From: Escherichia coli
GTDB lineage: Bacteria; Pseudomonadota; Gammaproteobacteria; Enterobacterales; Enterobacteriaceae
Length of the DNA: 64,000 nucleotides
NCBI RefSeq assembly: GCF_009931435.1
Contig: NZ_CP043414.1
Reading direction: 5' to 3' (one strand)
In this document: positions 15,209 through 22,181 of the stretch, in pieces
How the letters are laid out: each line of letters starts with the position of its first letter
Position numbering within the stretch: the stretch's first letter is position 1
Program-made: the position numbers and the translations under genes
The notes under the pieces: generated by a model
What the model was told of the DNA's origin: nothing
Database searches by the model: none
The model's input: only the letters and a program-made list of their open reading frames with translations

Positions 15209-16510
15209 ATGGCGCAATTCTACTCTGCAAAACGACGCACGACGACGCGTCAGATCATAACTGTTTCAGTCAACGACCTCGACTCTTTTGGTCAGGGCGT
15301 GGCACGACATAACGGCAAAGCGTTATTTATTCCTGGATTATTGCCACAGGAAAACGCGGAAGTTACTGTTACTGAAGATAAAAAACAGTACGCCCGCGCT
15401 AAAGTCGTGCGCCGGTTAAGCGATAGCCCGGAACGCGAAACGCCACGCTGCCCTCATTTTGGCGTATGCGGTGGCTGTCAGCAACAACACGCCAGCGAGG
15501 ATTTACAGCAGCGAAGCAAAAGTGCGGCACTCGCCCGATTAATGAAACACGAAGTCTCTGAAGTGATCGCCGATGTTCCCTGGGGCTATCGCCGTCGCGC
15601 GCGTTTAAGTCTGAACTACTTACCGAAAACACAGCAACTTCAGATGGGGTTTCGCAAAGCGGGCTCCAGTGACATTGTCGACGTTAAACAATGCCCCATT
15701 TTAGTGCCCCAACTTGAAGCATTGCTGCCCAAAGTCAGGGCATGCCTGGGCAGCTTACAAGCTATGCGCCATCTTGGTCATGTTGAACTGGTACAGGCAA
15801 CCAGCGGCACGCTGATGATTTTGCGCCATACCGCACCGCTAAGTTCGGCAGATCGCGAAAAACTGGAACGCTTTTCGCATTCTGAAGGCCTGGATCTGTA
15901 TCTCGCCCCCGATAGTGAGATACTCGAAACCGTCTCTGGTGAGATGCCCTGGTATGACTCAAACGGGTTGCGCTTAACTTTTAGCCCGCGCGATTTTATT
16001 CAGGTCAATGCGGGTGTGAACCAAAAAATGGTAGCGCGTGCGTTGGAATGGCTGGATGTACAACCTGAAGATCGCGTACTGGATCTGTTCTGCGGTATGG
16101 GCAACTTTACACTGCCATTGGCGACACAAGCTGCCAGTGTGGTGGGTGTAGAAGGCGTTCCGGCGCTGGTTGAAAAAGGCCAGCAGAATGCGCGTCTTAA
16201 TGGCTTACACAATGTGACGTTTTATCACGAAAATCTTGAAGAAGATGTCACAAAGCAGCCGTGGGCGAAAAACGGCTTCGATAAAGTGTTGCTGGACCCG
16301 GCGCGAGCAGGTGCCGCAGGTGTTATGCAGCAAATTATAAAACTGGAACCTATTCGTATAGTTTATGTATCCTGTAATCCTGCAACGCTGGCTCGGGATA
16401 GCGAAGCGTTATTAAAAGCAGGATATACCATTGCGCGACTGGCGATGCTGGATATGTTCCCACACACGGGACATCTGGAATCGATGGTACTTTTCTCGCG
16501 CGTTAAATAG
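15209..16510 (+). CDS. rlmD: 23S rRNA (uracil1939-C5)-methyltransferase
   Basis: 433-aa [33 protein letters not shown]... with TRAM domain, Cys cluster ([11 protein letters not shown]) and SAM-MTase motif. Confidence 0.93.
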
Positions 16511-16557
16511 TTACGATTTGTCGATTTCGGCAGGTCTGGTCCCTAAAGGAGAGGACG

Positions 16558-18792
16558 ATGGTTGCGGTAAGAAGTGCACATATCAATAAGGCTGGTGAAT
16601 TTGATCCGGAAAAATGGATCGCAAGTCTGGGTATTACCAGCCAGAAGTCGTGTGAGTGCTTAGCCGAAACCTGGGCGTATTGTCTGCAACAGACGCAGGG
16701 GCATCCGGATGCCAGTCTGTTATTGTGGCGTGGTGTTGAGATGGTGGAGATCCTCTCGACATTAAGTATGGACATTGACACGCTGCGGGCGGCGCTGCTG
16801 TTCCCTCTGGCGGATGCCAACGTAGTTAGCGAAGATGTGCTGCGTGAGAGCGTCGGTAAGTCGGTCGTTAACCTTATTCACGGCGTGCGTGATATGGCGG
16901 CGATCCGCCAGCTGAAAGCGACGCATACTGATTCTGTTTCCTCCGAACAGGTCGATAACGTTCGCCGGATGTTATTGGCGATGGTCGATGATTTCCGCTG
17001 CGTGGTCATCAAACTGGCAGAGCGTATTGCTCATCTGCGCGAAGTAAAAGACGCGCCGGAAGATGAGCGCGTACTGGCGGCAAAAGAGTGCACCAATATC
17101 TACGCGCCGTTGGCGAACCGTCTTGGGATTGGACAACTGAAATGGGAGCTGGAAGATTACTGCTTCCGTTATCTCCACCCGACCGAATACAAACGCATCG
17201 CAAAACTGCTGCATGAACGCCGTCTCGACCGCGAACACTATATCGAAGAGTTTGTCGGTCATCTGCGCGCTGAGATGAAAGCTGAAGGCGTTAAAGCTGA
17301 AGTGTATGGTCGTCCGAAACACATCTACAGTATCTGGCGCAAAATGCAGAAAAAGAACCTCGCCTTCGATGAGCTGTTTGATGTGCGTGCGGTACGTATT
17401 GTCGCCGAGCGTTTACAGGATTGTTATGCCGCACTGGGGATAGTGCACACTCACTATCGCCACCTGCCGGATGAGTTTGACGATTACGTTGCTAACCCGA
17501 AACCAAACGGTTATCAGTCTATTCATACCGTGGTTCTGGGGCCGGGTGGCAAAACCGTTGAGATCCAAATCCGCACCAAACAGATGCATGAAGATGCAGA
17601 GTTGGGTGTTGCTGCGCACTGGAAATATAAAGAAGGCGCGGCAGCTGGCGGCGCACGTTCGGGACATGAAGACCGAATTGCCTGGCTGCGTAAACTGATT
17701 GCGTGGCAGGAAGAGATGGCTGATTCCGGCGAAATGCTCGACGAAGTACGCAGCCAGGTCTTTGACGACCGGGTGTATGTCTTTACGCCGAAAGGTGATG
17801 TCGTTGATTTGCCTGCGGGATCAACGCCGCTGGACTTCGCTTACCACATCCACAGTGATGTCGGACACCGCTGCATCGGGGCAAAAATAGGCGGGCGCAT
17901 TGTGCCGTTCACCTACCAGTTGCAGATGGGCGACCAGATTGAAATTATCACCCAGAAACAGCCGAACCCCAGCCGTGACTGGTTAAACCCAAACCTCGGT
18001 TACGTCACAACCAGCCGTGGGCGTTCGAAAATTCACGCCTGGTTCCGTAAACAGGACCGTGACAAAAACATTCTGGCAGGGCGGCAAATCCTTGACGACG
18101 AGCTGGAACATCTGGGGATCAGCCTGAAAGAAGCAGAAAAACATCTGCTGCCGCGTTACAACTTCAATGATGTCGACGAGTTGTTAGCAGCGATTGGTGG
18201 CGGGGATATCCGTCTCAATCAGATGGTGAACTTCCTGCAATCGCAATTTAATAAGCCGAGTGCCGAAGAGCAGGATGCCGCCGCGCTGAAGCAACTTCAG
18301 CAAAAAAGCTATACGCCGCAAAACCGCAGTAAAGATAACGGTCGTGTGGTGGTAGAAGGTGTCGGCAACCTGATGCACCACATCGCGCGTTGCTGCCAGC
18401 CGATTCCTGGAGATGAGATTGTCGGCTTCATTACCCAGGGGCGCGGTATTTCAGTACACCGCGCCGATTGCGAACAACTGGCGGAACTGCGCTCCCATGC
18501 GCCAGAACGCATTGTTGACGCGGTATGGGGTGAGAGCTACTCCGCCGGATATTCGCTGGTGGTCCGCGTGGTGGCTAATGATCGTAGTGGGTTGTTACGT
18601 GATATCACGACCATTCTCGCCAACGAGAAAGTGAACGTGCTTGGCGTTGCCAGCCGTAGCGACACCAAACAGCAACTGGCAACCATCGACATGACTATTG
18701 AGATTTACAACCTGCAAGTGCTGGGCCGCGTGCTGGGTAAACTCAACCAGGTGCCGGATGTTATCGACGCGCGTCGGTTGCACGGGAGTTAG
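16558..18792 (+). CDS. relA: GTP pyrophosphokinase ((p)ppGpp synthetase I)
   Basis: 744-aa ORF MVAVRSAHINKAGEFDPEKWIASLG...; GGAGAGG RBS 9 nt upstream. Confidence 0.96.
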   Translation: MVAVRSAHINKAGEFDPEKWIASLGITSQKSCECLAETWAYCLQQTQGHPDASLLLWRGVEMVEILSTLSMDIDTLRAALLFPLADANVVSEDVLRESVGKSVVNLIHGVRDMAAIRQLKATHTDSVSSEQVDNVRRMLLAMVDDFRCVVIKLAERIAHLREVKDAPEDERVLAAKECTNIYAPLANRLGIGQLKWELEDYCFRYLHPTEYKRIAKLLHERRLDREHYIEEFVGHLRAEMKAEGVKAEVYGRPKHIYSIWRKMQKKNLAFDELFDVRAVRIVAERLQDCYAALGIVHTHYRHLPDEFDDYVANPKPNGYQSIHTVVLGPGGKTVEIQIRTKQMHEDAELGVAAHWKYKEGAAAGGARSGHEDRIAWLRKLIAWQEEMADSGEMLDEVRSQVFDDRVYVFTPKGDVVDLPAGSTPLDFAYHIHSDVGHRCIGAKIGGRIVPFTYQLQMGDQIEIITQKQPNPSRDWLNPNLGYVTTSRGRSKIHAWFRKQDRDKNILAGRQILDDELEHLGISLKEAEKHLLPRYNFNDVDELLAAIGGGDIRLNQMVNFLQSQFNKPSAEEQDAAALKQLQQKSYTPQNRSKDNGRVVVEGVGNLMHHIARCCQPIPGDEIVGFITQGRGISVHRADCEQLAELRSHAPERIVDAVWGESYSAGYSLVVRVVANDRSGLLRDITTILANEKVNVLGVASRSDTKQQLATIDMTIEIYNLQVLGRVLGKLNQVPDVIDARRLHGS

Positions 18793-18804
18793 GCCGAAAT
18801 TAGC

Positions 18805-18860
18805 TCGTATCTACAATGTAGATTGATATATACTGTATCTACATATGATAGCGGTTTGAG
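18805..18860 (+). promoter_or_regulatory. mazEF promoter/operator region with alternating palindrome
   Basis: ATCTACAATGTAGAT perfect palindrome (18809-18823) and the related TATCTACATATGATAG immediately upstream of the mazE RBS. Confidence 0.6.
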
Positions 18861-18869
18861 GAAAGGGTT

Positions 18870-19118
18870 ATGATCCACAGTAGCGTAAAGCGTTGGGGAA
18901 ATTCACCGGCGGTGCGGATCCCGGCTACGTTAATGCAGGCGCTCAATCTGAATATTGATGATGAAGTGAAGATTGACCTGGTGGATGGCAAATTAATTAT
19001 TGAGCCAGTGCGTAAAGAGCCCGTATTTACGCTTGCTGAACTGGTCAACGACATCACGCCGGAAAACCTCCACGAGAATATCGACTGGGGGGAGCCGAAA
19101 GATAAGGAAGTCTGGTAA
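18870..19118 (+). CDS. mazE: antitoxin MazE
   Basis: 82-aa [50 protein letters not shown]... Confidence 0.95.
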
Positions 19119-19453
19119 TGGTAAGCCGATACGTACCCGATACGGGCGATCTGATTTGGGTTGATTTTGACCCGACAAAAGGTAGCGAGCAAGCCGGACA
19201 TCGTCCGGCTGTTGTCCTGAGTCCGTTCATGTACAACAACAAAACAGGTATGTGTCTGTGTGTTCCTTGTACAACGCAATCAAAAGGATATCCGTTCGAA
19301 GTTGTTTTATCCGGTCAGGAACGTGATGGTGTAGCGTTAGCTGATCAGGTAAAAAGTATCGCCTGGCGGGCAAGAGGAGCAACGAAGAAAGGAACGGTTG
19401 CCCCAGAGGAATTACAACTCATTAAAGCCAAAATTAACGTGCTGATTGGCTAG
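19118..19453 (+). CDS. mazF: mRNA interferase toxin MazF
   Basis: 111-aa [60 protein letters not shown]...; start overlaps mazE stop. Confidence 0.95.
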   Translation: MVSRYVPDTGDLIWVDFDPTKGSEQAGHRPAVVLSPFMYNNKTGMCLCVPCTTQSKGYPFEVVLSGQERDGVALADQVKSIAWRARGATKKGTVAPEELQLIKAKINVLIG

Positions 19454-19524
19454 GTGTTACTAACTCACTTCTATTCTGGTCACAGGTTTCCACCTGACAG
19501 ACCCGCAATTTTCAGGACATTCTA

Positions 19525-20316
19525 ATGAATCAAATCGACCGTTTGCTCACTATTATGCAGCGTCTTCGCGACCCGGAAAACGGCTGCCCGTGGGATAAAG
19601 AGCAGACATTTGCCACCATTGCACCTTACACCCTTGAAGAAACCTACGAAGTGCTGGACGCCATCGCCCGCGAAGACTTTGACGATCTGCGCGGTGAACT
19701 CGGCGATCTGTTGTTCCAGGTGGTGTTTTACGCGCAAATGGCTCAGGAAGAAGGGCGCTTTGACTTTAATGATATTTGCGCTGCGATTAGCGATAAATTA
19801 GAGCGTCGCCATCCGCATGTTTTTGCTGACAGTTCTGCCGAAAACAGTAATGAAGTGCTCGCCCGTTGGGAGCAAATCAAAACCGAAGAGCGCGCGCAGA
19901 AAGCGCAGCATTCGGCGCTGGACGATATTCCTCGTAGTTTGCCGGCTTTAATGCGTGCGCAAAAAATCCAGAAACGTTGCGCCAACGTTGGCTTTGACTG
20001 GACGACGCTCGGCCCGGTAGTCGATAAGGTCTACGAAGAGATCGACGAGGTGATGTACGAGGCGCGGCAGGCTGTTGTCGACCAGGCTAAACTGGAGGAG
20101 GAAATGGGTGACCTGCTGTTTGCCACGGTCAATCTGGCTCGTCATTTAGGGACAAAAGCGGAAATCGCATTGCAAAAAGCCAATGAAAAATTCGAGCGCC
20201 GTTTTCGCGAAGTGGAGCGTATTGTTGCCGCGCGTGGACTGGAAATGACAGGTGTTGACCTCGAAACAATGGAAGAAGTCTGGCAACAGGTAAAACGGCA
20301 GGAAATTGATCTCTAA
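19525..20316 (+). CDS. mazG: nucleoside triphosphate pyrophosphohydrolase MazG
   Basis: 263-aa ORF MNQIDRLLTIMQRLRDPENGCPWDKEQTF... Confidence 0.93.
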   Translation: MNQIDRLLTIMQRLRDPENGCPWDKEQTFATIAPYTLEETYEVLDAIAREDFDDLRGELGDLLFQVVFYAQMAQEEGRFDFNDICAAISDKLERRHPHVFADSSAENSNEVLARWEQIKTEERAQKAQHSALDDIPRSLPALMRAQKIQKRCANVGFDWTTLGPVVDKVYEEIDEVMYEARQAVVDQAKLEEEMGDLLFATVNLARHLGTKAEIALQKANEKFERRFREVERIVAARGLEMTGVDLETMEEVWQQVKRQEIDL

Positions 20317-20528
20317 GGGAATTACGCGGTCAAGCGCGATTTGTGTCATTTTTTAAATGACAAGCGCTTGATTTGCGTCAAAAACATTTACCCCAAAGGG
20401 GCTATTTTCTCACTCCTGATTTCAATAGTGCGCTGGCGAAGAGGAGGGATAATGAAAGTTTGTGGCACAGGTCATGTTCGGGTATACTGCTTTCCCGTCC
20501 TGGTTATTCCATCGTCTTTTCAACCTAA

Positions 20529-22181
<1,653 letters not shown>

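Follow-up and report, generated by a model that had tools for sequence, protein, structure and literature searches.

The 77-nt gap between relA and mazE in the window (the whole 64-kb stretch of Escherichia coli DNA that was analyzed) harbors a cluster of inverted and direct repeats that we identify, with high confidence, as the autoregulatory operator-promoter of the chromosomal E. coli mazEF toxin-antitoxin operon. This assignment is based on the sequence identity of both the operator and MazE to characterized counterparts, the three-arm geometry of the repeats, the gene context, and the conservation of the element in E. coli. The binding constants, stoichiometry, repression and activation by FIS discussed below come from the literature on identical DNA and an identical MazE, and by analogy would be expected to apply to the present strain. 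The operator is already known, as the original prediction itself stated: it is identical to the published E. coli mazEF element, and the window contains an ordinary copy of this well-studied sequence. The finding is of little importance beyond correct annotation, as it marks the promoter-operator of a toxin-antitoxin module that is among the best studied. It serves as a positive control, in that a characterized regulatory site was recognized from the sequence alone by a reader without tools, and it comes with small comparative additions, namely that a 45-nt core is nearly invariant in mazEF-bearing E. coli and that the operator moves together with the mazEF cassette, not with relA.

Gene context and match to the published operator

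The gene order across positions 15209-22181 is rlmD, relA, mazE, mazF, mazG, pyrG, as established from ORFs, Pfam matches and the annotation of matching E. coli genomes. The genes and gene-level features that are relevant here are the following:

16558-18792, plus strand: relA (GTP diphosphokinase), a 744-aa ORF; the matching region is annotated as relA in E. coli genomes
18790-18792, plus strand: stop codon of relA (TAG), from the reading of the ORF
18793-19490, plus strand: mazEF cassette (operator, promoter, mazE and mazF); 1007 of the 5426 complete E. coli genomes lack it
18858-18867, plus strand: ribosome-binding stretch of mazE, purine-rich GAGGAAAGGG, 3-12 nt 5' of the ATG, read directly
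18870-19118, plus strand: mazE, an 82-aa antitoxin with an AbrB-type DNA-binding N-terminal domain (PF04014, E-value 3.5e-14)
19118-19453, plus strand: mazF, a 111-aa toxin, ACA-specific endoribonuclease and co-repressor (PF02452, E-value 5e-24)
19525-20316: mazG (match to PF03819)

The gap of 77 nt (sequence GCCGAAATTAGCTCGTATCTACAATGTAGATTGATATATACTGTATCTACATATGATAGCGGTTTGAGGAAAGGGTT) extends from the relA stop codon to the mazE ATG at 18870, and the repeats are located within it, 3' of relA and just 5' of the ribosome-binding stretch, exactly where the original prediction had placed them. The start of mazF shares one base (19118) with the end of the mazE stop codon, and the two genes form one operon. 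The MazE protein is identical over all 82 residues to the crystallized E. coli protein (PDB 1MVF chain D, 1UB4), and its residues 2-50 agree with the chain in 2MRN/2MRU, so that the residues reported to contact DNA (K7, R8, W9, N11 and R16) are all present. The MazF protein matches the E. coli MazF structures PDB 3NFC, 5CK9 and 1UB4 and is identical to K-12 MazF in 110 of 111 positions, the single difference being M9T (codon 9, at 19142-19144, encodes Thr here and Met in K-12).

Binding of MazE to its operator has been characterized with the 'cab' oligonucleotide, 5'-CTCGTATCTACAATGTAGATTGATATATACTGTATCTACATATGATAGCGT-3' (Zorzini et al. 2015, PMC4333400). In an exact search, positions 18804-18853 matched the first 50 of the 51 bases of this oligonucleotide without a single difference, and the match occurs once in the window; the last (51st) base of the oligonucleotide is T, and the window has G there. 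The comparison was made to binding oligonucleotides derived from Marianovsky et al. 2001. The arrangement of the operator, together with candidate promoter elements and a putative FIS site in the same gap, is as follows:

18792-18806, unstranded: putative FIS site GGCCGAAATTAGCTC, which fits the G-N3-A/T-rich-N3-C FIS pattern by eye and is located immediately 5' of the operator
18804-18853: mazEF operator ('cab' region) with three MazE-dimer sites, from the 50/50 match to the cab oligonucleotide
18807-18825: site c, GTATCTACAATGTAGATTG, holding the palindrome ATCTACA-A-TGTAGAT; identical to the published 'c' oligonucleotide
18823-18836: site a, TTGATATATACTGT, with an ATATAT palindrome at 18826-18831; matches the published 'a' duplex
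18828-18846: site b, ATATACTGTATCTACATAT, holding the third arm ATCTACAT; identical to the published 'b' oligonucleotide
18823-18849, plus strand: best sigma-70-like match, TTGATA (18823-18828)-15 nt-TATGAT (18844-18849), scoring 10/12 in a hexamer scan of the gap
18829-18834, plus strand: second candidate -10 element, TATACT, from the same hexamer scan

Misalignment with the characterized operator, the outcome that the original prediction had named as contrary to it, was thus not observed, and the exact match, the relA-mazE-mazF-mazG neighborhood and the identical MazE bear out its identification of a MazE/MazF autoregulatory operator. The description of the sites was incomplete: the palindrome that it reported corresponds to site c and its half-site to site b, but site a was overlooked and the geometry was left unnamed. 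In E. coli K-12, the mazEF (chpA) operator is likewise located in the relA-mazE gap (Marianovsky et al. 2001; Lah et al. 2003; Zorzini et al. 2015). Over the whole 77 nt, a K-12 genome shows a single substitution relative to the window, T in place of A at 18802, a position that belongs to the putative FIS site and not to the operator; the differences from K-12 are this base and the M9T substitution in MazF, the operator itself being identical.

According to isothermal titration calorimetry with MazE dimers (Zorzini et al. 2015, PMC4333400), site c is the tightest single site (Kd 0.6 uM, n=1), followed by site b (Kd 2.1 uM, n=1) and site a (Kd 5.1-5.6 uM, n=1), and the whole cab operator binds with a Kd of 0.6 uM and n=3. 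The same study presents an NMR/SAXS model built on site a (PDB 2MRU) and gel shifts in which MazF strengthened the binding of MazE, an effect that was gone at a high MazF:MazE ratio; its authors regard the operator as three consecutive independent sites. Some inconsistencies in the literature concern site a. The label denotes the ATATAT site in Zorzini et al. 2015 and, as the earlier work is described by others, the middle arm of the palindrome in Marianovsky et al. 2001. A 2016 review states that MazE binds 'a' best, whereas in the calorimetry table (PMC4333400) c is best (c 0.6, b 2.1, a about 5 uM). In addition, the 5' and 3' labels of the 'a' reverse oligonucleotide in Zorzini et al. 2015 (PMC4333400) are apparently swapped.

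Secondary sources describe two promoters in the relA-mazE gap, P2 and P3, which are located 13 nt apart, with the upstream P2 about 10 times stronger; according to these sources, MazE represses both, and MazEF does so more strongly. The overlap of P2 and P3 with the operator in the window is drawn from these secondary descriptions and from our reading of the hexamers, and the assignment of individual hexamers to the two promoters is putative. The best sigma-70-like match, with its 15-nt spacer, lies entirely inside sites a and b, which makes repression by occlusion plausible. A standard promoter scan with spacers of 16-18 nt yielded no site inside the operator. The only match of that scan nearby, ATGATA-18-TATGAT (18845-18874), was rejected: its -10 element coincides with the mazE start codon, and such matches occur at the frequency expected by chance. 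Reviews mention that FIS activates from a site located upstream of the alternating palindrome, for which positions 18792-18806 are a predicted location. Natural E. coli variation concentrates at this putative site, and the window itself carries a minority base there: position 18802 is A (TTAGCT), as opposed to T (TTTGCT) in the six other sampled alleles, K-12 and EDL933 among them. This substitution might alter activation by FIS in the present lineage.

Repeat geometry and alternative readings

The 15-mer ATCTACAATGTAGAT (ATCTACA-A-TGTAGAT), detected with a repeat finder at 18809-18823, is an inverted repeat with two 7-nt arms (18809-18815 and 18817-18823) separated by a single central A. The arms are perfectly complementary, in agreement with the 'perfect palindrome' of the original prediction; given the odd central base, however, the 15-mer as a whole is not strictly self-complementary. 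The second, related half-site that had been proposed is present as a third arm, ATCTACAT, at 18837-18844, which is complementary in 8 of 8 positions to the middle arm ATGTAGAT (18816-18823), with 13 nt between the two. The third arm also exactly repeats the first one, within a direct repeat of GTATCTACA at 18807-18815 and 18835-18843. The middle arm accordingly complements both the upstream and the downstream arm, such that either pairing is possible, and the three arms reproduce the published 'alternating palindrome' geometry of the mazEF operator.

This geometry is the basis of the original 'alternating palindrome' idea, under which MazEF would recognize an alternative DNA secondary structure, a cruciform or a hairpin switch, instead of three linear sites. 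The arms required for such a switch exist, as the middle arm (18816-18823) can pair with either 18809-18815 or 18837-18844, and one review reports that many mutations in the palindrome left the binding of MazEF unaffected, from which it concludes that the structure is more important than the sequence. Nevertheless, folding of the two strands of 18804-18853 as single-stranded DNA gives only -4.4 and -4.6 kcal/mol (z-scores of -0.57 and -0.95 against shuffled sequences), the c-a pairing between the upstream and middle arms would leave a 1-nt loop, and MazE binds separate, annealed linear duplexes, with n=3 for the whole operator (PMC4333400). We therefore consider recognition of an alternative structure highly improbable and favor three linear MazE sites.

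The repeats lie 17 nt past the relA stop codon, and mazEF-less E. coli genomes carry a very stable hairpin with a U-rich stretch at the equivalent position, which could be taken to indicate that the repeats are not an operator but act in the RNA, as an intrinsic terminator or a stabilizing hairpin at the 3' end of relA. However, the predicted folding energy of the 77-nt intergenic RNA (-14.2 kcal/mol, z-score -0.39) is no better than that of shuffled sequences, the arms are A/T-rich and no T-run comes after them, a terminator scan of the plus strand was empty here, no Rfam match was obtained at E<=1, and co-transcription of relA with mazEF(G) has been described in the literature. The probability of this reading is negligible compared to that of a MazE/MazEF operator.

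With regard to statistical significance, the 7+7 palindrome by itself is not unusual: palindromes of this kind (7-nt arms, spacer no longer than 1 nt) number 10 in the window, against 9.3 +/- 3.1 expected from 200 first-order Markov simulations. The complete arrangement is a different matter. The combination of such a palindrome with a third copy of one of its arms within 40 nt occurs only once in the window, and three of the six ATCTACA heptamers of the window are located within these 35 nt. A palindrome with a third arm appeared anywhere in 64 kb in 18 of the 200 simulated runs, and scaling of these simulations gives a probability of about 1e-4 for the pattern falling by chance in this one 77-nt gap. 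Thus, the possibility that the palindrome is a functionless coincidence, which is compatible with the ordinary frequency of such palindromes in the window and with four occurrences of the exact three-arm pattern in unrelated genomes that have no MazEF nearby, can be practically dismissed, considering that the window has no other three-arm arrangement, that this one lies in a 77-nt promoter gap, and, provided that the published data hold, that binding of MazE has been measured on the identical DNA sequence (PMC4333400).

Conservation of the operator core and distribution of the mazEF cassette

Of 5426 complete E. coli genomes, 4418 contain the 301-nt region around the operator, in each case as one chromosomal copy. 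Within this region, at least 4344 of the 4418 mazEF-bearing genomes share an identical 45-nt core (18805-18849) with the window; this count is a lower bound because megablast misses seeds for some single-mismatch variants, so that at most 74 genomes may differ. The 77-nt gap in its entirety is matched exactly in 343 of these 4418 genomes. Among seven alleles chosen to span the entire range of divergence (100% to 94.8% identity over the 77 nt), all substitutions map to 18792-18804 or to 18850 and 18852, sparing the core. Given that the overall divergence is only 1-5%, invariance of the core within the species is weak evidence of constraint. One of the seven alleles is that of B95.deltaA (locus L011, 91-105), where relA ends with TAA and the next bases are ATTACTTCTTTG instead of GGCCGAAATTTG, such that the putative FIS site is rewritten and the core is intact. 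Judging by its name and by the rewritten stretch, this strain appears to have been engineered by stop-codon recoding, and its allele should be left out of the natural variation.

In the 1007 genomes that lack the cassette, the match to the window covers relA up to the stop codon and then breaks off, which indicates that the operator belongs to the mazEF cassette and not to relA. The left junction of the cassette lies exactly after the relA stop codon and the right junction at about 19484-19491; no direct repeats flanking the cassette were seen. In the empty allele, relA is followed by 95 nt (2594-2688 in both L001 and L002) and then by mazG, with no mazEF. The segment that replaces positions 18793 to about 19490 is about 55-60 nt long and forms a very stable hairpin, with a U-rich run after it (-33.2 kcal/mol, z-score -6.0), neither of which is found in the occupied allele. 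The absence of mazEF from an intact relA-mazG operon in many strains, such as UTI89, has already been published (PMC7167474).

We further searched for the three-arm pattern beyond these genomes. In a scan of one genome per species, ATCTACANTGTAGAT-N8-18-ATCTACA was not found next to any mazEF. The scan produced no match in Escherichia, presumably because the representative E. coli genome lacks mazEF. Four matches to the pattern, in one Saccharibacteria, one Heimdallarchaeota and two Actinomycetes assemblies, were rejected as chance occurrences, with no MazE or MazF homologue detected (tblastn E > 1). A distant blastn search of plasmids with the cassette as the query detected the operator on none of them, save for a single E. 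coli record of 4.8 Mb in the plasmid collection; the plasmid matches to the cassette otherwise show about 70% identity and are confined to the coding region. The exceptional record, NZ_OL790696.1, is the sole full-length 'plasmid' match to the cassette (98.1%) and is almost certainly a chromosome that was mislabelled.

Proposed mechanism and related systems

Based on the published calorimetry, gel-shift and reporter data for identical DNA and MazE, we propose that three MazE dimers, through their AbrB-type swapped-hairpin DNA-binding domains, would occupy three adjacent duplex sites, namely the 7-1-7 palindrome of site c, the ATATAT of site a and the third arm in site b, the centers of which are roughly 12-13 bp apart. 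MazF dimers are expected to bind the disordered C-terminal tails of MazE and to raise its affinity for DNA, so that the toxin-antitoxin complex would be a much stronger repressor than MazE alone; a large excess of MazF would probably abolish this effect. The sites are predicted to coincide with the -35, -10 and start regions of the closely spaced P2 and P3, so that RNA polymerase would be blocked when MazE or MazEF occupies them. FIS bound just upstream would activate transcription.

The ACA triplet that is cleaved by MazF is present in both ATCTACA arms, at 18813-18815 in site c and at 18841-18843 in site b; there are two such triplets in the 77 nt, close to the number of about 1.2 that chance would give. 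It is conceivable, even if very unlikely, that the operator arms have a second role at the RNA level, with the DNA sites for MazE doubling as RNA cleavage sites for MazF, or that the base at 18802 has an effect on FIS. Under such an RNA-level role, the mazE leader of a transcript reading through from relA, or of one that starts 5' of arm b, would contain sites for MazF, and transcriptional and post-transcriptional autoregulation would be coupled.

The multi-site organization of the mazEF operator has parallels in several related systems. The parD (kis-kid) system of plasmid R1 and the pem system of R100 belong to a homologous antitoxin-toxin family, with an AbrB-type antitoxin and a toxin of the PemK/MazF fold. 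According to the literature, the parD/pem promoter contains more than one palindromic region, and the toxin:antitoxin stoichiometry tunes repression; its operator is described as having another sequence and two regions (I, perfect, and II, imperfect), as opposed to the three mazEF sites. A more distant case is VapB2 of Rickettsia felis, an AbrB-type antitoxin that recognizes the same ATATAT palindrome through equivalent contacts (Zorzini et al., PMC4333400); its toxin partner is VapC and its overall operator differs.

Homologues of MazE encoded on plasmids of Klebsiella and Providencia (L013 and L014, respectively) are 40-46% identical to MazE, with K7, W9, G10, N11 and R16 invariant. Similarity of these loci to the window at the DNA level begins inside the coding region, and each locus has multi-arm repeats of its own in the 100 nt 5' of mazE. 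In Providencia (L014, 435-465), these are TATCAACA-T-TGTTGATA and a third copy of TTGATAC located 13 nt downstream; in Klebsiella (L013, 407-467), there are two 21-22-nt repeats of the TGTTTAAACA type. Both sets of repeats are unrelated to ATCTACA and differ from it in the orientation of the arms. We consider them candidate operators that may follow the same multi-site logic with unrelated sequences, and these two plasmid examples fit a scenario in which operators would co-evolve with their antitoxins.
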